A DNA stretch of 32,000 bases from Sedimentisphaera cyanobacteriorum. GTDB lineage: Bacteria; Planctomycetota; Phycisphaerae; Sedimentisphaerales; Sedimentisphaeraceae. Below are positions 1 to 14,775 of the stretch, one piece after another. A program made the position numbers and the translations under genes. Each line of letters begins with the position of its first letter. Positions within the stretch are counted from its first letter, which is position 1. The notes beneath the pieces are model-generated. The model ran no database searches and was not told the origin of the DNA. It saw only the letters and a list, made by a program, of their open reading frames with translations. The stretch spans positions 2,670,001 through 2,702,000 of the forward strand of contig NZ_CP019633.1 of NCBI RefSeq assembly GCF_001997385.1, read 5' to 3'.

Positions 1-846
1 AAGGACGGGTTTTACTTTGACGCAATTTGTCGGCAAGAGCCGATAGACGAAGAAAAACTTAATCCGGCAGATAACTGCGTAGAGTTCAGTGTACTCTCGG
101 AAAGTGAGATAGAGCATTACAAGAAGGAAGCCAAAGCTGCTGCAGAAAGTGGAAAAGGAGCGGTCCTTACAGCTCCGGCTGCGCCGTTTGGAGATATTGC
201 TATGATTCCGGCTGTGGGAGTGAAACATACTCCCGGCATTAGGGATGTCGAAGAGTGGTATGTCTCAACTGTTGCTCGGCGGGATTATGTCTATGCAGTT
301 TTTGAAAAACAATGCGAGATAGCTCTCGAAAATCTTGGTCTTCTTGCAGAAGCTCTCGGAGACGATGTACTGGCGGTTTTTACCACCGGAACTGATTTCG
401 GAATGCAGACAGGGCTGTTCATTTCGCCGCAGGCTTACCGTGATTTGTATAAGCCGTTTCATAAAGCGATTAATGATTTTATACATCAAAATACTTCATG
501 GAAGGTGTTTATTCATTCCTGCGGAGCTGTAAAGCAATTGATTCCGGAGTTCATAGATGCTGGGTTTGATATTCTTAATCCGGTACAGTGCTCGGCTGCA
601 GGGATGGATCCGCAGGAGTTGGCTGATCGTTTCGGGCAGAATATTACTTTTTGGGGCGGATTAGTTGATACTCAGAACACGCTGCCCTTCGGGACACCTG
701 AAGAAGTTTACAGAGAAGTTTCTGAAAGGGCTGAGATTTTTCAGCAAAAAAATGGCTTCGTAGCCACCTCGATTCACAATATACAAAGCAATGTTCCAAT
801 TGATAATATCATTGCAATGTTCAAGGCGCTTGGAAGAGATTTTTAA
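1..846 (+). CDS. URO-D (uroporphyrinogen decarboxylase / MtaA-CmuA methyltransferase-like) family protein, 5'-partial
   Basis: Frame 1 is open from nt 1 with no stop before the track ATG at 202, so the gene starts upstream of the window. The translated part (FIHSCGAVKQLIPEFIDAGFDILNPVQ, GMDPQEL, ITFWGGLVDTQNTLPFGTPEEV, IHNIQSNVPIDNI) fits the C-terminal half of the URO-D TIM-barrel family. Stop is TAA at 844-846. Confidence 0.7.
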   Translation, partial: KDGFYFDAICRQEPIDEEKLNPADNCVEFSVLSESEIEHYKKEAKAAAESGKGAVLTAPAAPFGDIAMIPAVGVKHTPGIRDVEEWYVSTVARRDYVYAVFEKQCEIALENLGLLAEALGDDVLAVFTTGTDFGMQTGLFISPQAYRDLYKPFHKAINDFIHQNTSWKVFIHSCGAVKQLIPEFIDAGFDILNPVQCSAAGMDPQELADRFGQNITFWGGLVDTQNTLPFGTPEEVYREVSERAEIFQQKNGFVATSIHNIQSNVPIDNIIAMFKALGRDF

Positions 847-876
847 CGATTATAATAATTCAATCTAAGGTTTTAG

Positions 877-2271
877 ATGGCTGAACATAAAATAAATACT
901 GATAATCAGCACACTGAAATTTCACAAGGTAGTTTGAGTTATGCAGCTGTTGTTGCGGCAGCAGCTGCGCTTGGCGGTTTACTGTTCGGCTATGATACAG
1001 CGGTAATTTCCGGGGCGATAGGTTTTCTGCGCAGCCATTTTGAACTGAATTCTATGATGACCGGCTGGGCAGCCTCCGCCGCCCTTGTTGGATGTATTTT
1101 CGGGGCAATGTTTGCAGGCACGCTTAGCGACCGTTTTGGCCGAAAGCGTATTATGATGCTTGCGGGAGGAATGTTTTTTATCTCTGCTGTTTGGTCGGCT
1201 ATTCCTTATCAATTATTTGATTTTATTATAGCGAGGGTTGTAGGTGGATTAGGTGTAGGGGCGGCCTCAATGCTTTCGCCTTTATATATAGCTGAAATAT
1301 CTCCTGCCAAGATGAGAGGTCGTCTGGTTTCTTTGAACCAGTTTGCCATTGTAGGTGGAATGCTGGTTGTCTATTTTGTAAACACTATGATTGCTCGTCA
1401 GGGCGGTGAAATGTGGAATGTGCAGTACGGCTGGAGATGGATGTTCGGCTCGGAAGCGGTGCCGGCAATACTGTTTTTTGGTTTGCTTTTTCTTGTTCCG
1501 GAAAGTCCGAGATGGCTAACAGAAGCAGGCAAAGAAAAACAGGCGAGGAATATCCTCACAAGGGTGGGAGGCAGTGAGCATGCTAAACTCGAGCTGAAAG
1601 AAATAAAGGATACCATCGCAATGGAGAGCGGCTCGATTTGGGATCTGTTCAAACCCGGGATAAGGATGGCTTTGATTATCGGCGCAGGACTCGCCATCCT
1701 CCAGCAAATCACAGGAATAAATATAGTTCTATACTATGCTCCGGAAATCTTCAAAAATGCAGGATTGACAGCGCAATCGGCTCTTTCAGATACCGTTATT
1801 GTTGGAATTGTCAATTTAACCTTTACTGTTGTTGCGATTGCTGTAGTGGATAAGCTTGGCAGGAAGCCTTTGTTATTGGCGGCCAGTGCTGGAATGGGGG
1901 TAAGTTTGTTACTACTCGGCAGGGCAATTCGTCTTGAACAGTTTGAAGGGCCATGGGTTCTGCTTTTTGTTCTGACCTACGTTGCTTCATTCGCTGTAGC
2001 TATGGGACCGGTTGTCTGGGTAGTAATATCTGAGATATTTCCCACTAAAATTCGCGGCAGAGCGATGTCTGTTGCCACTGTGTGTTTATGGACAGCCTGC
2101 TTTCTTGTATCTGTATTTTTCCCTTATATGCTTGAAACCTTTAAAGGTTCGGTATTTTGGATTTATGCCGATGTGTGCGGGGCTGCATTTTTGTTCGTTC
2201 TTTTATTCGTCCCGGAAACAAAAGGCAAAAGTCTTGAAGAAATAGCAAAAAGCTGGATTGGAAGCGATTGA
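877..2271 (+). CDS. MFS sugar porter family transporter (sugar:H+ symporter, XylE/GalP/AraE-like)
   Basis: 464 aa with a multi-TM profile. Classic sugar-porter signatures are present: GRKRIMM after TM2, PESPRWL, PETKGKSLEEI near the C-terminus. AAGG RBS upstream, TGA stop. Confidence 0.85.
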   Translation: MAEHKINTDNQHTEISQGSLSYAAVVAAAAALGGLLFGYDTAVISGAIGFLRSHFELNSMMTGWAASAALVGCIFGAMFAGTLSDRFGRKRIMMLAGGMFFISAVWSAIPYQLFDFIIARVVGGLGVGAASMLSPLYIAEISPAKMRGRLVSLNQFAIVGGMLVVYFVNTMIARQGGEMWNVQYGWRWMFGSEAVPAILFFGLLFLVPESPRWLTEAGKEKQARNILTRVGGSEHAKLELKEIKDTIAMESGSIWDLFKPGIRMALIIGAGLAILQQITGINIVLYYAPEIFKNAGLTAQSALSDTVIVGIVNLTFTVVAIAVVDKLGRKPLLLAASAGMGVSLLLLGRAIRLEQFEGPWVLLFVLTYVASFAVAMGPVVWVVISEIFPTKIRGRAMSVATVCLWTACFLVSVFFPYMLETFKGSVFWIYADVCGAAFLFVLLFVPETKGKSLEEIAKSWIGSD

Positions 2272-2607
2272 ATTTTCCAGAAGGCATTTTCGGATTTTTG
2301 ACAAATTCAGCTGTTGAATAATGAACTTAAACTGAGATGTTTGTGGAAGCGATTGTGAGAATACAAACAGCACTTTGTTCTTGCGGAAAATGGCTTTATA
2401 TTAACGCAAAATGGCCTTCATTTTGAGGCTGATGTTTCTTATATTTGTACAATGAGCCTTCGGTTTTTGCTTTATAGTATTGCGATAGATCTCAAAAATG
2501 CCTTGATTCGCTTTTTGCTGATTGAAGGCAGCAAAGTTGTAAATATCCGAGGCTTTAATGCCGCTGAGCTTTGATTTCTAAACTGCTCTGATGTAATGCG
2601 TAATACG

Positions 2608-2627
2608 GCAGAATTTAGCAGAATTTA
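2608..2627 (+). repeat. Perfect tandem duplication of the 10-mer GCAGAATTTA
   Basis: Read directly: 2608-2617 and 2618-2627. It lies inside the 538-bp ORF-poor spacer upstream of the PEP-CTERM gene. Confidence 0.9.
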
Positions 2628-2809
2628 ATAGGTTTTGAAAGCGTAGAGAATTATGAATAGAAGGGTTTGGTTTTTTACAACTGCAGAGCCGGCAGCATTA
2701 ATCGAAGAGAAGAAAGGAGATTTGATCGACAGTGAACAGTGTTTTTTAAGGTATTACCGCAGTAATCAAAATCGTGTAATTTATTTAATTATTTTTTGAG
2801 GGTAGAAAA

Positions 2810-3412
2810 ATGAAAAAAACAAAAAGTATTCTAATGTTTGCTGCTGTTATTGCTGTAGCAGTTAGCTCGCAGGCCAATTTTATTGCCAATGGTGATTTCG
2901 AGAACGGAACTGACAATTGGCCTGAAAGAGGCAATTGGGGCGGAGCAACCCTTACATTCGACAACGGTGAGTTGTATATGGATACTAATGCTGAAAATCT
3001 TGATAACACTGAGGACTATGGAGCTAACGCTCGTAGTGATCGCTTTTCAGTTTATCAGGGGATGCAGCTTGATTACAGTATTGACTATGCAACTTGGATC
3101 TCCGAGACGCCTCAGGCAGAGAGTTATCTCTTCAGACTGCAGTTTTACGATGAGCAGGAAAACTGGGTCGGAGATACTGTGTTAGAGGAGATTAAAGACC
3201 ACACAGGGTTCGTTTGGAACACGTTGTCAGGTCAGACTACAGTGGGGCCTGAAAATGCGGTTTTAGCCGCTGTTGAATTGAGCAACGGAACCTATAACAA
3301 TTTTAACGGAGCTGTAAAGGTTGATAATGTTTCGATAGTTCCCGAACCGGCTTCGCTTTCACTGCTCGGATTTGGTGCTGCAGCACTGATTCGAAAAAGA
3401 AGCTCAGCGTAA
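2810..3412 (+). CDS. Secreted PEP-CTERM-anchored protein with a single NGDFE-type CBM-like (CBM4_9-like) jelly-roll domain
   Basis: Signal peptide MKKTKSILMFAAVIAVAVSSQA. The domain starts NFIANGDFENG..W, typical of CBM4_9-like modules. The C-terminus VPEPASLSLLGFGAAALIRKRSSA gives a PEP motif, a TM helix and a basic tail (PEP-CTERM sorting signal, nt 3338-3409). GAGGG RBS upstream. Confidence 0.8.
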   Translation: MKKTKSILMFAAVIAVAVSSQANFIANGDFENGTDNWPERGNWGGATLTFDNGELYMDTNAENLDNTEDYGANARSDRFSVYQGMQLDYSIDYATWISETPQAESYLFRLQFYDEQENWVGDTVLEEIKDHTGFVWNTLSGQTTVGPENAVLAAVELSNGTYNNFNGAVKVDNVSIVPEPASLSLLGFGAAALIRKRSSA

Positions 3413-3416
3413 AAAA

Positions 3417-3438
3417 AGTTATGTGAAAGTTATGTGAA
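3417..3438 (+). repeat. Perfect tandem duplication of the 11-mer AGTTATGTGAA
   Basis: Read directly: AGTTATGTGAA at 3417-3427 and again at 3428-3438. It lies in the 94-bp spacer between the PEP-CTERM gene and the next paralog. Confidence 0.9.
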
Positions 3439-3506
3439 CAGAAGGGACTCTGAATTTACTTCAAGATCGCTTCTATTAAATGAAATTCTTTACTAAGGAG
3501 AAAATT

Positions 3507-5120
3507 ATGAAAAAAAGCATTAACTATTTTTTGGTTTTAGCTTTCATTGGGTTAATGAGTGTTGCCGCAGAGGCAAATATTCTTCCTAACGGAGACTTTG
3601 AAGCGGATCCGCCAGACCAGTTTTGGAACAGCGGTACTGGGGGCAACGGTGTAGTTGATTTCTCTTATAACGACGGATATCTGCGTACCGACGCTGCCAG
3701 CGACCATGCTGATATAATAAGCGACAAATTCAGCGCTTCTGCTACAACCTATAATTACAGCTTTGAGTATTCGGTAGACAATTTTTCCAGCGATGATTTG
3801 GCTGGTCTGTTTCAGTTGAGGTTTTTCGATTCCTCCGGCTCTTTTCTCGGCGAGGAGGATGTAGATCTGGCTGATACAGGGAGTTCAACAATAACAGCAA
3901 GCGGCTCAGCTTCAGCTCCCGCCGGCACGTCCAGTGCTGATATTCGTGTTAGTTTGGGCGTATTCAATGATTTTACCGGCGACTTGATAATTGATAATAT
4001 TTTAATTGAAGCAGACCTTTGGATTATCACCCAGCCTGAAGGTGTATTGGCAAATGAAGGCGATGACGTTAGCTTTACTGCTGAAGCAGGCTCTGCTTCC
4101 GGGGACACTCCCTCATACCAGTGGTACAAGTCTGCCGATTCAACTATTGGAGGCGAAGATGATCAGCTGCTCACTGGAGAGACAGCAGCAACATTGGCGA
4201 TTTCTGATGTAACATCCGCTGATACTGGTTTTTATTACTGTGAAGCAGCAGTGAATTCAAGTACGATAACTACCAATGCTGCCTTCTTGAGTTTTGGTGA
4301 TCTTGTGGCGCATTGGAGTATGGACGAAGCTGATGTAGCGGGTTCAGACCCCAATTACTATTCCGATCTGACCGGCAACGGACACAGCGCAAATATAGAA
4401 CAATCAGTACCGGTGAACTTTGTTGATGGCGTAGTAACCGGTGATCAGGATATTGAAAACTTAAAACCAAACGGTGCTGTTGAAATTGATCACCTAGCCG
4501 GAACAGCCAATGCCAGAACATTTGACCCTGCTGCAGAATCAGGCGAGTGGTCGGTTAGTCTCTGGCTTAATTGGAACGATACAGGCCTTGATTCGGGTTA
4601 CAACAATTTATGGTCTAAACGAGACGGATGGGGTTTCGATTCTATGCAGTATATGGTGCACGTATATGATGAATGGGACGGAGCTGTAATCATGGAAACT
4701 TCCGGAGGCGGCTGGATTGGTACCGGCGGCAGTGCAATAACACCCGGTCAGTGGCATCATCTGGTTATAACTTACGATTCCAGTCAGCGCGCAGAGATAT
4801 GGCTTGACAGCGAGCTTGAGGCTGAGAATGATAACTATGTTATGGGCACAAAGAGCGATTCCACGTTCTGGGTCGCCCGCAATGACAGTACTGCAGAATG
4901 GTTCGATGGTGCGATTGATGACTTCAAGGTCTTCAACTATTCCCTCTCTGACAAAGATATATATGACCTGTATTACGATGAAACAGGTTTTCGCAGGTGT
5001 CTGGAGGAACAAAGACCAGAGGCTGACCAAAATGGTGACTGCGTCGTAGATTTTGTTGATTTTTCTCTGCTTGCAGAGGAATGGCTGAATGACGGTAATT
5101 ACACTCCGCAGGCCTTCTAA
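3507..5120 (+). CDS. Secreted multidomain protein: CBM-like jelly roll, Ig-like domain, LamG (Laminin_G_3-like), dockerin-like C-terminal tail
   Basis: The preferred start is ATG 3507 (MKKSINYF..., signal peptide ending AEA), with AAGGAG 6-7 nt upstream. The track ATG at 3480 lacks an RBS. Modules seen: NILPNGDFE N-terminal module; Ig-like segment with YQWYK and DTGFYYCEA; LamG-type segment LVAHWSMDE ... WHHLVITYD ... FDGAIDDFKVFNYSLS; tail C-x13-DQNGDCVVDFVDFSLLAEEWL. Confidence 0.75.
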   Translation: MKKSINYFLVLAFIGLMSVAAEANILPNGDFEADPPDQFWNSGTGGNGVVDFSYNDGYLRTDAASDHADIISDKFSASATTYNYSFEYSVDNFSSDDLAGLFQLRFFDSSGSFLGEEDVDLADTGSSTITASGSASAPAGTSSADIRVSLGVFNDFTGDLIIDNILIEADLWIITQPEGVLANEGDDVSFTAEAGSASGDTPSYQWYKSADSTIGGEDDQLLTGETAATLAISDVTSADTGFYYCEAAVNSSTITTNAAFLSFGDLVAHWSMDEADVAGSDPNYYSDLTGNGHSANIEQSVPVNFVDGVVTGDQDIENLKPNGAVEIDHLAGTANARTFDPAAESGEWSVSLWLNWNDTGLDSGYNNLWSKRDGWGFDSMQYMVHVYDEWDGAVIMETSGGGWIGTGGSAITPGQWHHLVITYDSSQRAEIWLDSELEAENDNYVMGTKSDSTFWVARNDSTAEWFDGAIDDFKVFNYSLSDKDIYDLYYDETGFRRCLEEQRPEADQNGDCVVDFVDFSLLAEEWLNDGNYTPQAF

Positions 5121-5157
5121 AAAGATTAATTGAATAAATCAATATAAGGAGAAAGAT

Positions 5158-7113
5158 ATGAATAAGACTTATTATTTTCTACTGATATTAGCTATAACAG
5201 GCATTGCACAAGCTAATCTTATTACTAACGGTGATTTTGCTGATGGTAATGCCAATTGGCCGGAGACCGGTTCATGGGGTGGTCAAAACCTTTCATTCGC
5301 CAATGGTGAGCTGTACATGGACAGTAATGCATCGAATCTTGATGACACAGAGGACTATGGAGCCTTTGCCCGCAGTGAACGGTTTTCGGTTTATCAGGGG
5401 ATGGAGCTTGGTTACAGTATTGACTATGCAACATGGGTGTCGGCTACTCCGCAAACTGAAGGTTATCTCTTCAGACTTCAGTGTTTTGATGATCAGGGAG
5501 AATGGGTCGGCGACATTCTTTTAGAAGAGATTACTGACCATACTGGATTCGGCTGGAACACACTGACCGGACAGTTTACAGTGGATTTCGCTAATGTTGC
5601 CGAAGCGACTGTTGAGCTCAGTAACGGAGCTTATAACAGTTTCAATGGAGCTGTTAAAGTTGACAACATTGCTCTGTTCGGCCCGTCTGCTTGGGATCCT
5701 GTTCCGGAAAACGGTGCTCAAGATGTTGGAACTGTTCAGAATGAAGCTTGTGATGTTGACTTGAGCTGGAAGACAGGGCTGAAAATTGCCGATCCTACCA
5801 TTCCTGATCCGAATATAGTTACTCATTACGTGTATCTCAACGACGGCAGCGGATGGACGCTTCAGGATGATGTAAACGCCGACAGCCCCGAAGCGACATA
5901 CACGCTCACAGGTTTGTCTTTCAATAAGCAATACCTCTGGCGGGTAGATGAGGGCGTCAGCCTTGCAGGCGGCGGCGTAAGCGGGCCTGAAGACCCTGAA
6001 ACCATTCAAGGGCCGGTCTGGTCTTTCGGCAGCTATGTAACCTTGTCAATTACTGAACAGCCCGAGACTGCTGCTGTAGATGCTGGAAGCGATGTTGACT
6101 TTACTCTCGCAGCAGAAACCTTGTTTGACTCGCCAATCTCGTATCAATGGTATAAGTCCGCAGATGATGTTGTTGACGATAGCGACGAGGCTCTCACCAG
6201 CGGGGATGTATTGACGCTCACTGATGTGGACTTGACTGATGAGACATTCTATTACTGCGCCGTATCTTCCGGTTCCCTTACGCTGCATTCAAATGTGGTT
6301 TCGCTTGGCATTCGCCGGAAATTAGCGCACTGGAGCCTTGATGATGTCGATTATTCCGAAAGCCAGTATATAGACCTCAGCAATTCAGGGAATGATGCCT
6401 CTGTTGGAGGAACTCCGGAATTTGTTGATGGTTTCGTAAACGGCGATCAAGACCCGAATACATTAAAGGCAAACGGTGCTGTTAAGATATATGAAAACGA
6501 TGGATGGGCTGATGCAGGAACATTTAACCCTGCCGAATATTCAGACCAGTTCACCGTTAGCGGATGGTTCAAGTGGACTCAGCACAGCGATCCTGCTGTT
6601 GACTGGAATACTCTCGTATCCAAGCGCGATAACTGGACTAGCAGCGATGACAATATGTTTATGATTCTCGTTGCAGGCCCGTCAAAGCAGCTCGTGATGC
6701 AGTCTTGGGGAGATGGCTATATTGGCTCCGGCCAGGATTCTGTACAGCCTAATGAATGGTATCATTTCGCAGCAGTTTACACCGGCGAAGTTGGCAGAGT
6801 GTATCTCAACGGCCAGTTTGCAGGTGAAGCCGAATATCCGATGCAGGGCGGCGAAGACTCCACATTCTACATCGGAAGAATTGGCGACGACCTCGGCCAG
6901 CGTTTTGATGGTGCAATTGATGATATTCAAGTTTATAATTACGCTCTGAGCTCTGAGCATATTGCAGGCTTGTATCAGGACGAAACGGGCGAAACAATTT
7001 GTCTGAAAGATCTTGTATGGTACGATCTGACAGACGACTGTGCCGTAAATATGGATGATTTTATGGTAATGGTTGATCAATGGCTTGATTCAGGTATGTA
7101 TCCGGCCGAATAG
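5158..7113 (+). CDS. Secreted multidomain protein: CBM-like jelly roll (paralog of 2810-3412), FN3-like, Ig-like, LamG, dockerin-like tail
   Basis: AAGGAG RBS upstream and signal peptide MNKTYYFLLILAITGIAQA. The N-terminal ~150 aa are about 70% identical (hand alignment) to the 2810-3412 protein. Other modules: FN3-like segment (WDPVPENGAQDV...LSW...YLWRVDE...GPVWSF); Ig-like (YQWYKSADD...ETFYYCAV); LamG (LAHWSLDD...WYHFAAVY...FDGAIDDIQVYNYALS); tail C-x12-DLTDDCAVNMDDFMVMVDQWL. Confidence 0.75.
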   Translation: MNKTYYFLLILAITGIAQANLITNGDFADGNANWPETGSWGGQNLSFANGELYMDSNASNLDDTEDYGAFARSERFSVYQGMELGYSIDYATWVSATPQTEGYLFRLQCFDDQGEWVGDILLEEITDHTGFGWNTLTGQFTVDFANVAEATVELSNGAYNSFNGAVKVDNIALFGPSAWDPVPENGAQDVGTVQNEACDVDLSWKTGLKIADPTIPDPNIVTHYVYLNDGSGWTLQDDVNADSPEATYTLTGLSFNKQYLWRVDEGVSLAGGGVSGPEDPETIQGPVWSFGSYVTLSITEQPETAAVDAGSDVDFTLAAETLFDSPISYQWYKSADDVVDDSDEALTSGDVLTLTDVDLTDETFYYCAVSSGSLTLHSNVVSLGIRRKLAHWSLDDVDYSESQYIDLSNSGNDASVGGTPEFVDGFVNGDQDPNTLKANGAVKIYENDGWADAGTFNPAEYSDQFTVSGWFKWTQHSDPAVDWNTLVSKRDNWTSSDDNMFMILVAGPSKQLVMQSWGDGYIGSGQDSVQPNEWYHFAAVYTGEVGRVYLNGQFAGEAEYPMQGGEDSTFYIGRIGDDLGQRFDGAIDDIQVYNYALSSEHIAGLYQDETGETICLKDLVWYDLTDDCAVNMDDFMVMVDQWLDSGMYPAE

Positions 7114-7128
7114 AAGAGATTGAGCGAT

Positions 7129-7170
7129 GGGGTTCCGGACTATTCCGGGACTCCTCCTTTTAAGTTTTTT
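7129..7170 (+). terminator. Rho-independent terminator after the 5158-7113 gene
   Basis: GGGGTTCCGGA-CTAT-TCCGGGACTCC forms an ~11-bp stem including G-U pairs (7129-7154). It is followed by TCCTTTTAAGTTTTTTT. Confidence 0.6.
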
Positions 7171-7190
7171 TATAACGATCTTTAATAATC

Positions 7191-7204
7191 ATTGTGAAAT
7201 CAGC
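7191..7204 (+). promoter_or_regulatory. Shared 14-nt motif ATTGTGAAATCAGC, copy 1, upstream of the pseudopilin gene
   Basis: An identical 14-mer recurs at 11158-11171. Both copies lie in intergenic DNA just downstream of a terminator and upstream of a + strand gene. This copy runs into the near-palindrome ATCAGCTGCAGC(T)TGAT at 7199-7215. Confidence 0.4.
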
Positions 7205-7254
7205 TGCAGCTTGATACAGATCAGTCATTGACAAAATTGATAAAAGTAGAAAGA

Positions 7255-8079
7255 ATGCAAATGAAAAATAAATATCTTAAATTAAACAGCGCTTTTACGC
7301 TAATCGAATTGCTGGTGGTCATTTCCATTATCGCTTTGCTTATGGCCATCCTTATGCCGGCATTATCGCAGGCAAGGCAAATGGCAAAAACGCTTGTATG
7401 CGAGAGCAACATACGTGGTTTGAACGTTGCTTGGCATACCTACGCATCGGATAATGACAGCAAAATCCCAGGGGCAAACGTGTACAATCCTAAAGAGCAG
7501 GAGTGGATAGAGACACATAAATGGGACTGGGCTTGGGCTCCTTGGAACAGTGAAGGCCAAAGGGGCGGCGGGGCAATAATCGACAGTCCAACGATTGAGC
7601 ATCGCAAGGAAGGTATTCGGCTTGGAAGCCTCTTTCCTTACACTGAAAGCGTGGATCTTTATCACTGTCCTTCAGATAAATCAGGCAATTTCAGGACATA
7701 TTCTATTCCCGATTCACTTAACGGAAGTTTAGACTGGGGGTGGACTCATCTTGATCGGACTGTCCAGATTTCTTCTCCCAGCACTTCTTATAACTTTGTT
7801 GGAGAGTATGACGGCCGCAACTTTAATCGCGGCTCATGGGCACTTGGCCCTTATGAACAAAGATGGGAAGATCAAACCTGGCATGACCCGATTTCCGTGT
7901 GGCACAGAGGCAAGACGAATTTCGGTTATGTGGACGGCCATGTTGAAACAAGGGATTTGAGCGACGAAACTGTTGAAGCTTTTGAGCGTCTCAGAGCGCA
8001 TCCAGGGACATTTTCGCCCGTAACAGATGAAGGCAAAGCGGATATGAAGTATATACATGACGGTTGGCCTCAACCCTAA
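7255..8079 (+). CDS. Prepilin-type N-terminal cleavage/methylation domain protein with H-X9-DG motif (DUF1559-like pseudopilin family)
   Basis: N-terminus MQMKNKYLKLNSA|FTLIELLVVISIIALLMAILMPAL gives the type IV pilin/T2SS pseudopilin signature. C.SNI..L follows, as in DUF1559 proteins. HRGKTNFGYVDGH gives H-X9-DG at nt 7903-7938. The start is ambiguous: TTG 7228 in the track, ATG 7255, or ATG 7261. Confidence 0.8.
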   Translation: MQMKNKYLKLNSAFTLIELLVVISIIALLMAILMPALSQARQMAKTLVCESNIRGLNVAWHTYASDNDSKIPGANVYNPKEQEWIETHKWDWAWAPWNSEGQRGGGAIIDSPTIEHRKEGIRLGSLFPYTESVDLYHCPSDKSGNFRTYSIPDSLNGSLDWGWTHLDRTVQISSPSTSYNFVGEYDGRNFNRGSWALGPYEQRWEDQTWHDPISVWHRGKTNFGYVDGHVETRDLSDETVEAFERLRAHPGTFSPVTDEGKADMKYIHDGWPQP

Positions 8080-8242
8080 TAAACAGGTATGAAATAATAC
8101 GCCGGCCACTATTTAGCAGCCGAAGTAAAAAAAATTAATGTAAACAAAATCTTGAAAAATGTTTTTCAGGAATTAAACATTCCCTGTCAATTCTTTGGCA
8201 TAATATCAAGCAGTTAAACCTTACGGCAATTAGGATTAATTT

Positions 8243-11086
8243 ATGGCATTAAAAAAGCAAGCGGTTACAGCACTTCTCCTTTTGTATTATTTTTGCGGCA
8301 TCGCTGTTGGCGGTGAGGAATGGGTGGGCGGTGATACTGCAGCTAATTTGATTCTTAACGGAAGCGCTGAAAATGATTTTTATGGTTGGAATTATTCCTA
8401 TGGCGTGAGTATAGTTAATGACGGTACCGAAGGAGCTCACTGTTTTGAGCTAAAACGCGATTTCTCAGACCGTTACCAAGACCTTCGCAGCGATGAGATC
8501 AATGTTACTGGCTGCGGGGAAATAATGATTCGATTTGCCGTCATGGCAATGGATGGGGCAAGCAGCGACGGGCAAGTTGATGTTCGCTTTTCCAGTCATA
8601 ATGAATTTTTAGGACAGGAGCAGTTCGCAATTGATGCCGGAATTACTGAATGGACTTATGTTTCGCATATAGTTTCAGTGGAGGAAGGTGCTGATGTTAT
8701 GGATGTCCGGTTCTTAATTGATGAATCAACCGAGGGAACTTTTCTCATTGATGACATATCTGTTTACCGCGCACCTATGGATTTTGGTATTTCATCTCCC
8801 GAGCACCTCTATGTAATTGATTTTCATTCTAAATATCTAAATGATGCCAAACGAATAGCCCTTACTTCATTGCAGGGCATACTTGCGCAGAATAAGCCGG
8901 AGTTGTATTTTATAGATGGAGGCGGAAGGTATCAAATGTATCTGGATGACTTGAAAAACAGATATGGCATAACTGCCACCAGAAATGACTACCTGTCTTT
9001 TTACCTTGATAAGTACAAAGATGAGCTTGCTGGATACGTGCTTTATGATTTCGATGACGTTGATTCGTTCAGCGCAGCTATGTCTTTGGCGGGAGTGTTG
9101 AGGGCTGTACCTCTGGATATCTCGCTTGAAAGCGATGTAAATCGAAGATGGCCGGAGCTGCAAATGCTTGTTGACTGCAGAGGCAAAACAGAGCAATGGG
9201 TTTATCAAAATTATTGGCACAGGCTAAACCATAATGCAATAACTATTCAGGATACTGATCAGAGCAGCAGAAAGTTTTTCCTTCGGGATTTGGGAGCAGC
9301 TTCCAAGGCAATCTCATGGTGGAACAGCGACTACTCTGCAACCCAGCAGGTGTTTGAATCAATGAACCCTAATTCCTCTGTTTGGGGATGGGATAATCCG
9401 GCAGCCCCGGGCGAATTGAGCGCTGTTGATTTTCACAGCCAAAACAGTCTTTTTCAGGTGCCGGCAGACTGGATGCTTAACCTATCCACATTTGCAGGGA
9501 TGGCCTCTTATGAGCCGGAAATAGAATTGAAACATCCTGCGAGCGATAAGGAGTATGAAAAGAAAACTGATGTTCACCATGTTGCTTTTATGATGAGCGA
9601 TATGGACAATATCAACGTCGTGTTTCATCCGCTCTCACATTGGTTCGATCCTCAATATTTCGGCCAGTTTCCTATGGGCTGGGGCATGCAGGCTTCTATG
9701 GTTGAAGTAGGCCCTTCAGTGATGGATTGGTGGTACCGCAAAGCAGGGGATAATAATTCCTTCTCTGCATACTCAGGACAGGGATATATGTATCCTTCTA
9801 AATTCCCAGAGCTCGATAGTTATTCAACCGTACTTAATAGTTATATGAAAAAAGGCGACCTTGAGTCGATGGTGATTTTAGACAATTATTCGGATGGATG
9901 GGATAAACCTCTTACATTCAGCGGATACAAGGATTTTGCAGGCAAGTACACCCGCTTTGACAATTTAAAAGGGCTCTTCTATGTTGATGTGCAGGGTGAT
10001 TACGCCCGCTATGACGGGAAAATACTTTGGTTTGACGGTAAGCCTATGGTAGCCACGAGGTACACTTTATGGGATTCGCAGCAGTATGAAGGAGTCAGCC
10101 GAACAGGTGAACAATTGGCAAACAGTATCAATCAGTTAGCGGCAGATTCTACCAGTGAGGATGGTTATAGTTTTGTTATAGTCCACGCATGGAGTTATGG
10201 TCTTGAGCAGGTGCATAATGCTATTCAGAATTTGGATGAAAATGTCAGGGTTGTAACACCCGATGAAATGATAGATCAATTGTATTTTAACACCGATACA
10301 GCATACTGGCCGTTTGAATTAGATACTGAAAACCGCTTTGCGGATAATCATTCTTACGAAAAGTTCGGCGAGCCTGAATTTGTTGCTGAGGACAATGCCA
10401 AAAGAGGTATTAGTGGAATAAGTTTTGACGGCGATGACGACTGCATAGACTTTGGCAATCAAGCCGGCTCATCCGAATGGCTCACAGCAGCCTTCTGGAT
10501 GAAATCCAGAAGACTCCAGCTTCAGGTTCCCGTTGATAAGCTGCCTAACGATAACAGCGGCACCGGCTGGAATGTTAAATTGCGTGAGACCGGCGAGGTA
10601 TGGTTCCGCGTTGGCAGTGAATCCAATAATCAAACCATTATCGCACCAAACGGCTATTCGCCGGGTGAGTGGGTGCATGTAGCCTGTACGCTGAATGAAA
10701 ACGTAGGGCGGCTTTATATAAATGGCGAGCTTGCTGCAGAACGAACTGATATCGTTCATTCGCCGGCGAATACCTCTGTGCCGATTCGAATTGGAAAACC
10801 CGCAGAAGCTGCAGTTGAGGAAGCTTTCTTTGGCATACTTGACGATGTGGTTATCTACGGCAGACCGCTTTCCCACGAAGAAATTAGATCTCTTATGAAT
10901 GAAGGCCCCTGTTCTCCGTATCTTAAGGGTGATTTGAATAAAGACTGCCGGGTGAATAAGACAGATCTTTTGCAGTTTGGGAAAAGCTGGCTGGAAAACG
11001 GTGAAGGAATTTCTGCGGATATTGATCAAAATCAAAGCGTTGACCTCAGAGATTTTCCTTATTTGTCTGATGGCTGGGAAAAATAA
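8243..11086 (+). CDS. Secreted GxGYxYP-family putative glycoside hydrolase with N-terminal CBM-like module, C-terminal LamG and two-repeat dockerin-like tail
   Basis: Signal peptide, then NLILNGSAENDFYGW ... FLIDDISVY (CBM-like). The motif GQGYMYP lies at nt 9776-9796 (GxGYxYP). LamG-like segment: FDGDDDCIDFG...WVHVACTL...GRLYINGEL...FFGILDDVVIYGRPLS. The tail has two EF-hand-like repeats, DLNKDCRVNKTDLLQF and DIDQNQSVDLRDFPYL. Confidence 0.7.
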   Translation: MALKKQAVTALLLLYYFCGIAVGGEEWVGGDTAANLILNGSAENDFYGWNYSYGVSIVNDGTEGAHCFELKRDFSDRYQDLRSDEINVTGCGEIMIRFAVMAMDGASSDGQVDVRFSSHNEFLGQEQFAIDAGITEWTYVSHIVSVEEGADVMDVRFLIDESTEGTFLIDDISVYRAPMDFGISSPEHLYVIDFHSKYLNDAKRIALTSLQGILAQNKPELYFIDGGGRYQMYLDDLKNRYGITATRNDYLSFYLDKYKDELAGYVLYDFDDVDSFSAAMSLAGVLRAVPLDISLESDVNRRWPELQMLVDCRGKTEQWVYQNYWHRLNHNAITIQDTDQSSRKFFLRDLGAASKAISWWNSDYSATQQVFESMNPNSSVWGWDNPAAPGELSAVDFHSQNSLFQVPADWMLNLSTFAGMASYEPEIELKHPASDKEYEKKTDVHHVAFMMSDMDNINVVFHPLSHWFDPQYFGQFPMGWGMQASMVEVGPSVMDWWYRKAGDNNSFSAYSGQGYMYPSKFPELDSYSTVLNSYMKKGDLESMVILDNYSDGWDKPLTFSGYKDFAGKYTRFDNLKGLFYVDVQGDYARYDGKILWFDGKPMVATRYTLWDSQQYEGVSRTGEQLANSINQLAADSTSEDGYSFVIVHAWSYGLEQVHNAIQNLDENVRVVTPDEMIDQLYFNTDTAYWPFELDTENRFADNHSYEKFGEPEFVAEDNAKRGISGISFDGDDDCIDFGNQAGSSEWLTAAFWMKSRRLQLQVPVDKLPNDNSGTGWNVKLRETGEVWFRVGSESNNQTIIAPNGYSPGEWVHVACTLNENVGRLYINGELAAERTDIVHSPANTSVPIRIGKPAEAAVEEAFFGILDDVVIYGRPLSHEEIRSLMNEGPCSPYLKGDLNKDCRVNKTDLLQFGKSWLENGEGISADIDQNQSVDLRDFPYLSDGWEK

Positions 11087-11311: not shown

Positions 11312-14300
11312 ATGGAAGTGAAAAAATTAGCATGTTTTATTGTTGTCTGCGTTCTTGGAGCTGCTGCTTTGGCTGAAGAGATTGACTACGGGGCAGACGA
11401 AGTCAATGCGATGCAGGAACGAAGAGATATGGTTAAGGGCGGGAAGTCTGATTATAATTATTTGGCTTTAAAAAACCACAAAGGGCCGAGCGGTGTGCCG
11501 CTGGGCGGTATCGGGACAGGCTGCTTTGATATTGCTCCAAACGGAGCTTTCACTCGTATCGCTCTGAATAATACTCACGAAGCAGGAGTCTTGAAAGATG
11601 TGCAGGGCAGTTTCCTGGCTTTCTGGAACGGGGAAGATGCAAAACTCCTGCAGCGTAAAAGCGTTGCCGGTATGGATACGATAGACAACGTTACCTACAC
11701 AGGGCTTTTCCCAACAATCAAATGCGATTACGGCAATGGTGTTACACTAAACGCCTACTCCGGCCTAATCCCCCACAACATCAAAGATTCCTCGCTGCCT
11801 GTTGCATGGCTTGATGTTACTGTGAAAAATACAACCGGCAAAGACAGTGATTTCAGCGTTGCATTCTCATGGGAGGATGTAATTGCCAGAGGCATTTCTG
11901 ACTACGCTGACCCTTCTATATTCAATCAAGTAAGCAATAACGCGTGGAGCTTGAATACAGTAAAAGACAAGCATCCCGAAAAAGGCTTACAGCCTATGGA
12001 AAAACCTCAAACACGAGTAGTCCCGTTGGAAGTAGGCAGTTTTTCAGGGCTCTTGCAGTATTCAAAGAAGCTTAAACCTTCAAAAATGACCTACCAGAAC
12101 TACAACAACAAAACAGCAATTCTGGCTGAGAACAGTTCTGGTGTAAAAGTAAGCTTTCTTCCCGAATGGAAAGTTGATAATCCAAAAGCGTGGAAATCTT
12201 TTGTAAAGTCAGGCGAGTTTGAACCTGATATGAGCCAGCCTCTCTCCTCGCATGGCGAAGGAGCTGCTGCTTCGGCTGTTTCTATAAAAACGCATCTCAA
12301 GGCCGGAGAATCCAAAACGGTCCGTTTTATGCTGGCATGGTTTGCTCCCGAATACAAAATTGACCGTGAAAAAGCCGATCCAGTTACTTATTTCGGTTCT
12401 GCTGATTACTGCCGGTATTACCATAACTATTTCGATAATATTAAAGAGCTTGTTTCGTATGCAGCGAAAAATCGCTCGAGAATTCTCAACAAATCACGTG
12501 AATGGCATAAGCCGGTTCTCGATTCAACTATGCCTGACTGGCTCAAATTCAAGTTGATAAACAGCGGCTACGTTATTTATACAAACTCCATTCTCAACAA
12601 AGCTGGAGATTTCACCGTGATGGAGGGTATGATGGGCGGTTTGGCTGGTACTATGGACCAGCGGATGAGCTCGCATCCGTTCTTCCAGAAATTCTTCACA
12701 GAAATAGACCGTTCTGAAATGGAGCTGTTCGGTCATACGCCCGGTTCAATGGGGCAAATTCTGCACTTTGACGGCCACTACTACATCGGCATTGCCTCCA
12801 GAGACGGCCAAACTCCAACCCCGGAGGGCTGGATGCTTGATAATTCCGGCAGCTGGCTCGTGCAGCTTGCAAAAGAATATCAGCAGACAGGCGATTTAGA
12901 ATACATAGCCCAGTTCCGTGATGAGATTAAGGGAGCTGTTGCCTTTCTGAAAGAAAGAATGCTCTACGACTTGGAAATACCCGTTGGCTACACGACCTAT
13001 GACGATTTCTGGCATCCGGATATTTATTCATACACCGCAACAACTTATCCTGTCTTCATGGATGCTGCCGCTGTGCTTTTTGAGGCTCTGGGCGAGAATC
13101 AGCTTGCTCAAGAATGCCGTTATCAGAAGGAAAGAAGCGTTCAGGATGCTGTTAATTATTTGTGGAACGGTAAGTATTTTGCCTATGGATGCGATCCTGA
13201 CGGCACGAACCGCCTTGATGATGTGATGTTCAGCGGGCAGTTGGCAGGCCAGTTTGTTTCTCGTTATTGTCAGTGGAACGAGAATTTCCCTGTTGAGATG
13301 GTCAAATCTTCAATTATAGCCCAGCTTAAAACAAATGTTGGTAATTCGGTTGATTATTATGCACCTAAGGTATGGGATATTCCAGCCAAGCAGGCCGAGC
13401 AGGGCGATTACGGCAAGTCAACATGCTGGCCGTTTTATCTTGAAAGCTATACTGCTATGGCAGCAATGCAGGCAGGATTTCTGCAGGATGGGCTGGATAT
13501 TATGAAACACATCCAGCTTGTGCATCTGCGTAACGGCTGGACATGGACGCAAAATCTATGGCAGCCCGATGAGGTTACATATATGACAGCTCCGGTAACA
13601 TGGTTTGTAACAGATGTGCTGGCTGGAGCAGGCGTTGATGTTACAAAAAATACTCTGTACCTTGCTCCTGTTTCGATGGAAAAGCAGGGCAAGGTGCAGC
13701 TCCCGCTGTTCTATCCTAAATTCTGGGCTGTTGTAACGCTTGATAACAATAACAAAACTGCGAGCCTCAAAGTAACCAAAACCTTTGGCGAAGAGAAATA
13801 TAAAATCGATCGTTTAATCTGTCGTCCTGTTGGAAAGTCGTTTGCTCAGCAGAAGACTTTTGATATTAGCCCTGTAACCCTCAAGGCCGGAAAAACTATC
13901 GACTTATCTGAGTATTATAATGCAATTACAGATGCCGAAATACACGAACCTATTCTCGATAAAATTGAAGTAGTACCATTTAAAGAATATACGCCGGCAA
14001 AATCATTGAAGTATCCCGAGATAAAATCAGCTCAAGACTTCTTTATTGACAGCATTGAAGTAAGTATTGCTTCTGAGAAGGGCGATATATACTATACACT
14101 TGATGGGTCTGACCCAAAAGCTGAAGGTAAAAAATACACGAAACCTTTCAAAGTAGATACCGAGACAACTGTTCTTGCTGTCGCTTCCAGCGACGGTTTG
14201 TACAGTCCTGTCCAAAGCAAGACCTTTACCAAGGCCGAGCCTCTCTCTCCGGATCTTGAAAACCCCGTCCGATTCAGATATCAGCTTTATAAGGGGTATT

Positions 14301-14668
14301 TTCAGAAACTTCCGGACTTTGCATTTCTTGAGCCCGTTAAAAGCGGAATTGCAGTTGACAGCAATGTTAAGAGGTTTAGATTTAAGGACAATTTTGCGGT
14401 TCTCTATGAAGGCTCTGTTACGATCGAAAAAGATGGTGTTTATACTTTCAGCCTTCGTTCAGATGACGGCTCACGTTTAACTGTTGGCGGTAAAGTTCTG
14501 AGTAATGACGGCGTGCATGACGCCACAGACACAAAGACCATGACTGTTCCTCTAAGTAAAGGTATCTACTCGGTTAAGGTAGAATATTTTGAGAACGAAG
14601 GGGGAGAGCTGCTCGAGGTTAAATGGCAGCCATCCGGTTCTGATTCAAAAGAAGTTTCGCTTTTTTAA
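11312..14668 (+). CDS. GH116-like glycoside hydrolase (GBA2-type beta-glucosidase fold) with C-terminal chitobiase/Fn3-associated-like and PA14 domains
   Basis: GAGGAG RBS and a signal peptide. GVPLGGIGTGCFDIAPNGAFTR is the characteristic GH116 N-terminal motif. It is followed by a long (alpha/alpha)6-like region (TYDDFWHPDIYSY...). DIYYTLDGSDP matches a chitobiase C-terminal-like module. YQLYKGYF...GVYTFSLRSDDGSRLTVGGKVL...VEYFENEGGELLEVKW matches PA14. Confidence 0.65.
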   Translation: MEVKKLACFIVVCVLGAAALAEEIDYGADEVNAMQERRDMVKGGKSDYNYLALKNHKGPSGVPLGGIGTGCFDIAPNGAFTRIALNNTHEAGVLKDVQGSFLAFWNGEDAKLLQRKSVAGMDTIDNVTYTGLFPTIKCDYGNGVTLNAYSGLIPHNIKDSSLPVAWLDVTVKNTTGKDSDFSVAFSWEDVIARGISDYADPSIFNQVSNNAWSLNTVKDKHPEKGLQPMEKPQTRVVPLEVGSFSGLLQYSKKLKPSKMTYQNYNNKTAILAENSSGVKVSFLPEWKVDNPKAWKSFVKSGEFEPDMSQPLSSHGEGAAASAVSIKTHLKAGESKTVRFMLAWFAPEYKIDREKADPVTYFGSADYCRYYHNYFDNIKELVSYAAKNRSRILNKSREWHKPVLDSTMPDWLKFKLINSGYVIYTNSILNKAGDFTVMEGMMGGLAGTMDQRMSSHPFFQKFFTEIDRSEMELFGHTPGSMGQILHFDGHYYIGIASRDGQTPTPEGWMLDNSGSWLVQLAKEYQQTGDLEYIAQFRDEIKGAVAFLKERMLYDLEIPVGYTTYDDFWHPDIYSYTATTYPVFMDAAAVLFEALGENQLAQECRYQKERSVQDAVNYLWNGKYFAYGCDPDGTNRLDDVMFSGQLAGQFVSRYCQWNENFPVEMVKSSIIAQLKTNVGNSVDYYAPKVWDIPAKQAEQGDYGKSTCWPFYLESYTAMAAMQAGFLQDGLDIMKHIQLVHLRNGWTWTQNLWQPDEVTYMTAPVTWFVTDVLAGAGVDVTKNTLYLAPVSMEKQGKVQLPLFYPKFWAVVTLDNNNKTASLKVTKTFGEEKYKIDRLICRPVGKSFAQQKTFDISPVTLKAGKTIDLSEYYNAITDAEIHEPILDKIEVVPFKEYTPAKSLKYPEIKSAQDFFIDSIEVSIASEKGDIYYTLDGSDPKAEGKKYTKPFKVDTETTVLAVASSDGLYSPVQSKTFTKAEPLSPDLENPVRFRYQLYKGYFQKLPDFAFLEPVKSGIAVDSNVKRFRFKDNFAVLYEGSVTIEKDGVYTFSLRSDDGSRLTVGGKVLSNDGVHDATDTKTMTVPLSKGIYSVKVEYFENEGGELLEVKWQPSGSDSKEVSLF

Positions 14669-14775
14669 TCTGAAGTGGTTTTGCGCTCAAACTGTTTCTC
14701 AGTATAAAGTGCCGTTTTGGAAAACTGGCAAAGAAAGCGTGTAAAAGATATACAACTCGCTAAAAGGTGAATTTG

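Follow-up and report, generated by a model that had tools for sequence, protein, structure and literature searches.

Do five consecutive genes for exported proteins in a planctomycete form one device for glycan capture, and does the pseudopilin encoded amid them belong to it? The question is raised by positions 2810-11086 of a 32,000-nucleotide stretch of the genome of Sedimentisphaera cyanobacteriorum (Planctomycetota, Phycisphaerae, Sedimentisphaerales), referred to as the window. The sequences covered are the window and 20-kb loci around homologues of its genes (numbered L001 onwards). Five plus-strand open reading frames (ORFs), p1 to p5, follow each other with intergenic gaps of 37-163 bp; p1 is 100% identical to L21SP3_02121 of the organism. 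ORFs and export signals agree with an initial annotation that had described five consecutive genes for exported proteins. The region encodes the binding and first-attack half of a polysaccharide utilisation cluster without SusC and SusD, of the type of the Planctomycetes-Verrucomicrobia-Chlamydiae (PVC) group. The reading favoured here, at a probability of about 0.55, is a conserved cassette of lectin-like proteins with the pseudopilin p4 as an accessory, not a defining, member.

A recurrent cassette of lectin-like proteins

The cassette recurs in seven independent loci with distant p3 homologues of 27-34% identity (L088, L090, L091, L092, L093, L130-L132 and L133). All seven begin with an extracytoplasmic function (ECF) sigma factor and a FecR-type anti-sigma factor carrying a C-terminal LamG or NPCBM domain (e.g. 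L133, 492-2650). One to three genes for Ig-LamG-dockerin proteins come after this pair. Next are genes for members of the glycoside hydrolase (GH) families GH2 or GH92, fucosidases, sulfatases, transporters of the major facilitator superfamily (MFS) or ROK proteins. Lectin-like proteins of the p2/p3 type had been placed beside carbohydrate-active enzymes (CAZymes) and sulfatases in the initial annotation, and this association holds in all seven loci. The regular position of the sigma/anti-sigma pair hints at a regulatory circuit conserved among glycan clusters of the Phycisphaerae.

A second regularity concerns an N-terminal domain of about 155 residues, named X here, which p1 shares with p2 and p3. 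In three independent loci the whole ectodomain of a small PEP-CTERM protein is copied at the N-terminus of one to three Ig-LamG-dockerin proteins encoded downstream of it, with identities of 49-76%. In the window, 2810-3412 and 5158-5679 encode copies of 66% identity. The ectodomain encoded at 3562-4236 of L133 recurs in the genes starting at 4493, 6652 and 8937 (76%, 74% and 53%), and that at 8655-9620 of L088 in the genes starting at 10001, 12424 and 14890 (64%, 52% and 49%). The X domains of the window, L133 and L088 fall into three sequence families without relation to each other; within a locus, the copies would be explained by recent duplication or gene conversion. As X is shared within each locus, it is likely the specificity module of the cassette. 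The literature searched holds no description of a PEP-CTERM protein with X plus X-Ig-LamG-dockerin proteins behind an ECF/FecR pair; the Sedimentisphaera genome paper was outside reach, and an earlier description is possible.

The first gene of the window cassette, p1 (2810..3412, plus strand), encodes a signal peptide, the X domain (residues 21-177) and a PEP-CTERM sorting signal (residues 177-198), as called by Pfam and NCBIfam. This anchor was not mentioned in the initial annotation. Its sequence, VPEPASLSLLGFGAAALIRKRSSA, reaches 21.9 bits with PF07589 (cut-off 20.7) and 21.4 bits with TIGR02595 (cut-off 16) and shows the C-terminal PEP motif, the transmembrane helix and the basic cluster of such signals. 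The second gene, p2 (3480..5120, plus strand), encodes a signal peptide, X (3570-4013), an Ig domain (4023-4280; Ig_3, E 9e-10), a LamG domain (4512-4961; Laminin_G_3, E 4e-16) and a single-repeat tail (4974-5111; E 1.6e-20 with a hidden Markov model of the tail). The longer p3 (5158..7113, plus strand) is composed of a signal peptide, X (5209-5679), a linker that reads as FN3-like in its sequence, an Ig domain (6046-6270; E 2e-6), a LamG domain (6535-6966; E 3e-24) and a tail (6976-7107; E 4.9e-19). The same FN3-Ig-LamG-tail architecture is present in the p3 homologues P0121-P0134. The Sec signal peptides of p1, p2 and p3 end in SQA, AEA and AQA, and the N-terminal domain starts directly after them.

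The X domains of p1 and p3 share 66-71% identity (66% over 176 residues), and that of p2 is about 30% identical to these. A profile search with X against the sequences in the PDB aligned only the N-terminal NGDF motif, within the first 18-29 residues, at E 0.6-0.9; a match of this weakness to carbohydrate-binding modules (CBMs) called for a fold search. The AlphaFold model of the p1 N-terminal domain is a beta sandwich (pLDDT 75, pTM 0.73). Foldseek aligned it with CBM4-2, CBM16, CBM22, CBM70 and a porphyran-binding CBM (E 2e-6 to 1e-4, TM 0.5-0.65), and also with CBM-like domains of phage tailspikes and Cry protoxins. By its modelled fold, X is a beta jelly roll of the CBM4/16/22 type. The profile search with X retrieved only the two Sedimentisphaera p1 proteins, and other X domains were seen only in P0122 and P0123. 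Of the four genes that had been described as sharing a jelly roll, p1, p2 and p3 do so; p5 is marginal, since its N-terminal domain has the length and position of X, matches p2 at E 0.008 in BLASTP and does not match p1. Its domain may be a distant relative of X.

Pfam and NCBIfam give no catalytic domain in p1, p2 or p3, as the initial annotation had stated for three of the jelly-roll proteins. A hidden catalytic domain in these proteins was considered and not adopted. The LamG domains gave weak NCBIfam matches to the fimbrial protein TafC (NF052521, 27-39 bits against a required 410, LamG region only). TafC is a subunit of the Tat-dependent fimbriae of haloarchaea; for this, and for scores far under the cut-off, the assignment was rejected. 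The matches reflect the LamG fold alone. Judged from the sequences, X would be displayed twice, once on the short PEP-CTERM anchor of p1 and once at the tip of a long X-FN3-Ig-LamG-dockerin stalk in p2 and p3.

The C-terminal tails of p2 and p3 are about 45 residues long and each carry one dockerin-type repeat, with no match to Pfam Dockerin_1 at E < 0.1. Type I dockerins (PF00404) have two tandem calcium-binding repeats of about 22 residues. The p5 tail has two repeats and scores 20.5 bits with Dockerin_1, under the cut-off of 22.9. Nearly all p3 homologues end in C-x(6-12)-D-[LF]-x-G-D-C-x-V-[DN]-x-x-D-F-A-x-F-A-x-x-W-L, in many cases with CGLxPDC behind it. Searched against 1.84 billion representatives, a profile built from 14 tails retrieved 11,866 clusters (E <= 1e-3), and many of these have at least two repeats. 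Among the best 75 of these 11,866 matches, 44 contained Dockerin_1, 23 Laminin_G_3 and 13 Ig_3, and further domains were RCC1, beta-propeller, pectate lyase and GH88. The retrieval of Dockerin_1 proteins by the tail profile indicates homology, and the tail is, from its sequence, a dockerin relative. The description of the tails as dockerin-like thus stood as to their kinship, although neither p2 nor p3 has more than one repeat, which is short of a full dockerin. In L088-L093 the tail also ends sulfatases, a GH2 protein, an Exo_endo_phos (phosphodiesterase-like) protein and several orphans. Its distribution marks it as a general C-terminal module of presumably secreted Phycisphaerae proteins and not as a hallmark of lectin-like proteins. 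Most simply, the tail is read as an anchoring or sorting device.

The pseudopilin p4 and its neighbours

The fourth gene, p4 (7255..8079, plus strand; ATG at 7255, ORF opening at TTG 7228), encodes a prepilin-type protein of 274 residues of the DUF1559 / H-X9-DG kind (Pfam, NCBIfam). Its leader ends in LNSA and is followed by FTLIELLVV; in the cleavage context, NSA before FTLIELLVVISIIALL, alanine replaces glycine at position -1. Scores exceed the cut-offs for the N_methyl prepilin motif (PF07963, 26.0 bits versus 21.2; TIGR02532, 24.5 versus 16.3) and for DUF1559 (PF07596, SBP_bac_10, 24.3 versus 23.3). The H-x9-D-G motif is present as HRGKTNFGYVDG, with TIGR04294 just under its cut-off (18.8 versus 19). 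In a comparison with 43 relatives H216, D226, C48 and C137 were invariant, G227 and H228 nearly so, and the subfamily has a conserved stretch E-E-N-D-P-R-G-Y-N. An AlphaFold2 model built with these 43 relatives (pLDDT 88, pTM 0.85) shows a helix from residue 15 to 65, followed by an alpha/beta head for which Foldseek found no solved structure at E < 1. The S. salicampi orthologue is labelled 'T2SS protein G' in databases. However, p4 is no GspG equivalog; TIGR01710 reaches 34.9 bits versus 88.85 and covers residues 22-77 only. Genes for a secretin, an assembly ATPase, a platform protein or a prepilin peptidase are absent among the window proteins. The initial annotation had likewise placed an H-X9-DG pseudopilin amid these genes, with no secretin, ATPase or platform gene in the window.

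The family of p4 is huge. Among 8000 candidates examined, 7028 proteins matched at E < 1e-5, thousands of them with both PF07963 and PF07596. Published copy numbers of DUF1559 are 74 in Rhodopirellula baltica and 68 in Planctopirus limnophila; in the latter it is the largest group of paralogues, of unknown function, with two essential members. Verruconatronum alginivorum has 67 pseudopilin paralogues (PMC13274419). There, a pulG-like pseudopilin gene lies within an alginate-induced cluster, a pseudopilin is over-expressed on alginate, and the role put forward by the authors is enzyme secretion and not capture (PMC13274419). The literature searched repeatedly calls DUF1559 a protein of unknown function, in agreement with the initial annotation, which had regarded the function as unresolved. 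The Pfam name SBP_bac_10 and several papers imply a periplasmic solute-binding protein. This assignment was dropped, as the AlphaFold2 model has a pilin-like helix and a single alpha/beta head, with no binding-protein match in Foldseek. In related metagenome-assembled genomes, genes for the type II secretion proteins K, L and M and for a secretin are found near p4-like genes. An unusual secretin fusion is encoded at 16816-20843 of L005, in a protein of more than 1400 residues comprising Peptidase_M56 (BlaR-like), a SecDF head and Secretin. Its gene lies downstream of a Penicillinase_R repressor gene and 6 kb from a p4-like pseudopilin gene.

A pseudopilin is missing within 10 kb in six of the seven distant cassette loci (L088, L090-L093 and L130-L132; for L130-L132 absence means that no N_methyl gene is annotated). 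The exception, L133, has two pseudopilin genes: one follows FecR directly, and the other, p4-like at 37% identity, comes after the sulfatase gene. Chance alone would give about one locus in seven for a family of some 70 copies, with 20 kb of a genome of 3-7 Mb considered. In this respect the earlier reading of the pseudopilin as part of the module was not supported as stated, the pseudopilin not being a conserved member, and the neighbours of about 110 other pseudopilin genes proved heterogeneous as well. These were drawn from two samples. The broad one used the generic pattern [GA]FTLIELLV and comprised about 70 PVC genes among the matches listed; 130 neighbours at positions -1 and +1 matched 200 Pfam families, the commonest of which was Laminin_G_3 (3 of 130, sulfatase 2). 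For the p4 subfamily, metagenomes were re-scanned with an alignment of the head only. The neighbours of 30 subfamily genes were heterogeneous and included fumarase, an rRNA methylase (rRNA dimethylase), Big_13 proteins, one LamG protein and one GH130. Tandem pseudopilin arrays were frequent in 36 metagenomic subfamily loci. Two or three paralogues stand in tandem on the metagenomic contigs L094-L097, L110 and L124. The loci of the closest relatives of p4 (40-48% identity) vary, with an RCC1-dockerin gene in L002, a GDSL lipase and an FG-GAP gene in L003, and small orphans and GH95 in L005.

From such neighbourhoods it is possible, if on balance unlikely, that p4 is functionally unrelated to the cassette. 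A DUF1559 duplicate would then have landed between p3 and p5, been inherited by two Sedimentisphaera species, and would serve another envelope function from its own promoter. The size of the family, the 67-74 copies per genome, the common tandem arrays and neighbours as remote as housekeeping fumarase and rRNA dimethylase fit this explanation. Gene order is the same in the draft genome of S. salicampi (L001; 96% identity for p4, 91% for p3), but the identical synteny is confined to this sister species. Transcription signals point in the same direction. The gap from p3 to p4 contains a terminator-like hairpin (7129..7154, plus strand) with an 11-bp stem followed by TCCTTTTAAGTTTTTTT. It starts 16 nt past the p3 stop, has a folding energy of -23.6 kcal/mol (z -3.5), and its stem and T tract are conserved in S. 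salicampi. Such a hairpin with a U tract counts against co-transcription of p3 and p4 in the window. At 7225-7262, 38 nt before and across the p4 start are near-identical in S. salicampi and include TTGACA. These elements may mean that p4 has its own promoter, or that its real start is the TTG at 7228. Against mere coincidence stand an adjacency of tailed genes that exceeds chance, related pseudopilins at the same position in two more mannoside loci of different lineages, and the verrucomicrobial pseudopilin gene inside an alginate-induced cluster with one pseudopilin over-expressed on alginate (PMC13274419).

The adjacency was counted in 87 pseudopilin-centred loci. Clear C-terminal tails were all encoded at gene -1 on the same strand (L002, L007, L120 and L121), which gives 4 of 90 genes at -1 of a pseudopilin versus none among 732 others (Fisher P 1.4e-4); the counts are small, come from a crude ORF caller and include two loci picked for their similarity to p4. 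Further tail-pseudopilin neighbours were seen in L052 (at -1) and L034 (at +1). The lectin-pseudopilin combination occurs again in Anaerohalosphaera lusitana and in assembly GCA_028282905.1. In the former (L007) a strikingly window-like mannoside locus reads GntR, LamG-Ig-LamG-dockerin, pseudopilin, GH38, URO-D, MFS and GH18-LamG. In L120, also a mannoside locus, a tailed protein is followed by a pseudopilin, an SSF symporter and GH130. On the co-localisation that the initial annotation proposed to check, cassettes thus mostly have no pseudopilin, while tails precede pseudopilins more often than by chance. The sequences suggest that a minority of DUF1559 genes is paired with a gene for a dockerin-tailed protein. 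The literature searched does not describe a dockerin-pseudopilin pairing; an earlier description is possible.

The pairing can be taken further to an integrated device of fibre and lectins. In it, p4 would be built into or cap a type IV filament, and the tails of p2, p3 and p5 would dock on a cohesin-like DUF1559 head, so that lectins and enzyme are carried to the glycan; in a close variant p4 is a cargo-specific pseudopilin to which the tail is the signal for type II secretion. Tailed genes on both sides of p4 in the window, the order of tailed protein and pseudopilin kept in L007 (GH38/GH18) and L120 (SSF/GH130), and the two pseudopilins joined with a full cassette in L133 favour such a device. 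The invariant cysteines, histidine and aspartate of the subfamily head would suit a binding or metal site. It is nevertheless improbable. The six cassette loci without a pseudopilin contain about 25 tailed proteins that lack such a partner, about 95% of the sampled pseudopilin genes have no tailed neighbour, and the very large tail family consists mostly of ordinary two-repeat dockerins. The hairpin between p3 and p4, the lack of machinery genes in the window and the small, partly selected adjacency counts also speak against the device. Coupling of fibre and lectin is possible but unproven. Of about the same low probability, a shade lower if anything, is the more general proposal that DUF1559 paralogues are the partners of single-repeat dockerin tails in PVC bacteria, each recognising the calcium-binding tail of the protein whose gene is just upstream. 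A paralogue of this kind could be a cargo-specific pseudopilus subunit or a cohesin-like subunit of a surface filament bearing lectins and enzymes.

A last explanation, by which the X-Ig-LamG-dockerin proteins are glycan sensors for trans-envelope signalling, analogous to SusC-type transducers with ECF sigma and anti-sigma factors, is very improbable: in all seven distant loci the genes do come immediately after those for an ECF sigma factor and a FecR protein with LamG or NPCBM, but this position fits a plain sigma-factor regulon equally well, the window and L007 lack the pair, and the C-terminal domain of the anti-sigma factor is no copy of X. That domain had been tried as a candidate X copy and was rejected, the similarity being only a weak one of LamG to LamG.

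The preferred reading, a conserved cassette with p4 as an accessory member, has several points against it. The excess of tails directly upstream of pseudopilins and the recurrence of a pseudopilin in the cassette loci L007 and L133 and behind the tailed gene of L120 argue against a merely accessory p4, and its link to the cassette may be tighter than assumed. The ECF/FecR pair that heads all seven distant cassettes is absent from the window. In A. lusitana (L007) it is lacking as well, and GntR regulators are found there. No exosortase was seen in the window or in the 20-kb loci, and neither was a cohesin-like partner of the tails; no window protein matches Cohesin. The likeness of X to CBMs holds at the level of the fold only; CBM_4_9 matches p1 X weakly (E 0.02, 15.7 bits versus a cut-off of 25.9). 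Domain content, the fold class of X, the recurrence of the cassette and the counts of pseudopilin neighbours are observations, whereas the surface location of the proteins, their ligand and the parts played by dockerin tail and p4 are predictions from sequence.

Catabolic genes and a proposed mechanism

The fifth cassette gene, p5 (8243..11086, plus strand), is the first enzyme gene of the row. Its product combines the X-like N-terminal domain (8342-8767) with GxGYxYP domains (8804-10273), a LamG domain (10430-10885; Laminin_G_3, E 6e-24) and the two-repeat dockerin (10913-11083). PF16216, PF20957, PF20958 and PF14323 all match above threshold, and the GxGYxYP_C match reaches E 1e-50. For the GxGYxYP family, glycoside hydrolase activity has only been predicted (PMC4071793).

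The plus-strand genes that follow were assigned by Pfam. They encode a GH116-like protein with PA14 (11312-14668), a GH92 protein (17021-19324), an MFS permease (19396-20571), a ROK kinase (20588-21694) and a sulfatase (21717-23345). A 738-residue orphan (14767-16983, plus strand) is encoded between GH116-like and GH92. N-terminal signal peptides are present in p5, the GH116-like protein, the orphan and the GH92 protein. The orphan has no match in Pfam, NCBIfam or the PDB sequences and is conserved in S. salicampi as a protein of 735 residues, again without Pfam match; it may be an undescribed glycoside hydrolase or an accessory protein. The sulfatase frame starts at 21717, and a Tat-like signal (MINRRDFMK...) is followed by a conserved N-terminus, PNILIIMADDMGYSDAE. 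An in-frame TGA occupies 21864-21866, after which reading resumes with FGGEVRTPNL...CWPSR; in the ORF list the gene is represented by its 3' part alone, starting at TTG 21918. The sulfatase consensus often has cysteine at the position of the TGA (GC[YF]G). The codon may have arisen from TGC or TGT, or it may reflect a sequencing error, a pseudogene or recoding.

Upstream of the cassette, a URO-D-like gene and a gene for an MFS sugar transporter occupy 202..2271 (plus strand, Pfam). The pair also lies beside mannosidase genes in L001 (2382-5045) and in A. lusitana L007 (14519-17130 and 1-763). In L007, URO-D and Sugar_tr adjoin GH38, and the transporters of window and L007 are 41% identical. 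The URO-D-like product (uroporphyrinogen decarboxylase / methyltransferase-like) might act on methylated sugars. In all, thirteen plus-strand genes extend from 202 to 23345, followed by tRNA-Thr, tuf, tRNA-Trp, secE, nusG, rplKAJL and rpoB. The largest gap in this row is an AT-rich intergenic region of 538 bp ahead of the cassette (2272..2809, plus strand) with no ORF called. The bin 2001-3000 has the lowest GC content of the window (0.38). From its size and position the gap is likely a promoter or regulatory region. A promoter scan found sites no more numerous than in shuffled sequence, and for this reason no promoter is claimed.

The initial annotation had listed GxGYxYP, GH116-like and GH92 glycosidases, two sugar permeases, a kinase and a sulfatase, and had read the whole as a locus of the polysaccharide-utilisation type without SusC and SusD. 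Pfam bears out both the list and the reading; SusC, SusD and TonB-dependent transporter families match none of the window proteins. To judge by GH92, GxGYxYP, the GH116-like protein, the ROK kinase and the sulfatase, the likely substrate is a glycan that contains mannose and is possibly sulfated.

The following mechanism is proposed. The proteins would be exported by Sec, and p1 would be sorted to the envelope by an exosortase. Calcium-binding dockerin-type tails would hold p2, p3 and p5 at the surface on a partner. X, and perhaps LamG too, would bind the mannose-containing, possibly sulfated glycan, which p5, the GH116-like protein, the 738-residue orphan and GH92 would trim. Products would be taken up by the MFS permeases and phosphorylated by the ROK kinase. 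A prepilin peptidase probably processes the pseudopilin p4, which would then become part of a type II secretion or type IV filament with machinery genes outside the window. Its gene is perhaps transcribed apart from its neighbours, and p4 may aid the export or retention of the large tailed proteins; a similar role has been suggested for the pulG-like gene in the alginate cluster of V. alginivorum (PMC13274419).

The cassette provides concrete candidates for the binding or sensing of polymers without SusC and SusD in planctomycetes. The tail excess at position -1 of pseudopilins, modest but significant, leads to a specific hypothesis for DUF1559, the largest gene family. If the partnership of DUF1559 and tail were true, glycan capture would be pilus-borne and cellulosome-like, and both the expansion of DUF1559 and binding without SusC and SusD would be explained. 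Otherwise, the locus is a well-resolved polysaccharide utilisation cluster outside the Bacteroidota, in a cultured anaerobic halophile. It holds little surprise for a PVC specialist and offers two directly testable hypotheses.

Comparison with known systems

Planctomycetes and other PVC bacteria rank among the major degraders of complex and sulfated glycans. The locus shares features with five systems. With GspG/PulG and the type IV pilins, p4 has in common the prepilin leader, FTLIELLVV with Glu5 and a long N-terminal helix joined to a globular head. It differs in the alanine at -1, a head about twice the size of that of GspG, a position outside any gsp or pil operon, and tens of paralogues per genome. 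Minor type IV pilins of Streptococcus sanguinis carry a lectin module of the concanavalin-A/LamG type and form a glycan-binding filament. In these modular pilins the lectin is fused to the pilin, whereas lectin-like proteins and pseudopilin are separate polypeptides in the window, and any contact between them is hypothetical.

The tails resemble the dockerins of cellulosomes in the EF-hand-like repeat D-x-N/D-x-D-C-x-V-D-x-x-D-F...W-L, present twice in p5. In contrast to cellulosomal dockerins, p2 and p3 have a single repeat, p5 remains below the Pfam threshold, and no cohesin or scaffoldin is encoded in the window; tail carriers extend beyond cellulases to lectin-like proteins, sulfatases and RCC1 proteins. 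The single repeat and the lack of a visible cohesin set the locus apart from a cellulosome. The alginate cluster of V. alginivorum is likewise from the PVC and places one copy of a multi-copy pseudopilin family in a polysaccharide-degradation cluster. Phylum and substrate differ, and the accessible part of the report names no LamG- or dockerin-containing lectin-like neighbours (PMC13274419).

A functional parallel is the polysaccharide utilisation locus (PUL) of the Bacteroidota with its surface glycan-binding proteins (SusD, SusE/F-like). The host of the window is a planctomycete, SusC/SusD and a TonB-dependent transporter are lacking, and without SusC and SusD the locus fails the defining PUL test. 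The five N-termini, inspected by eye, show no canonical lipobox. Anchoring by PEP-CTERM and dockerin-type modules and cytoplasmic import by MFS permeases would take the place of the Bacteroidota components. Like a PUL, however, the CAZyme cluster is headed by genes for non-catalytic exported proteins with Ig-like and CBM-like domains. An enzyme carries a similar binding module, and the position of the genes immediately behind an ECF sigma/anti-sigma pair in the distant loci suggests that the pair may control them.

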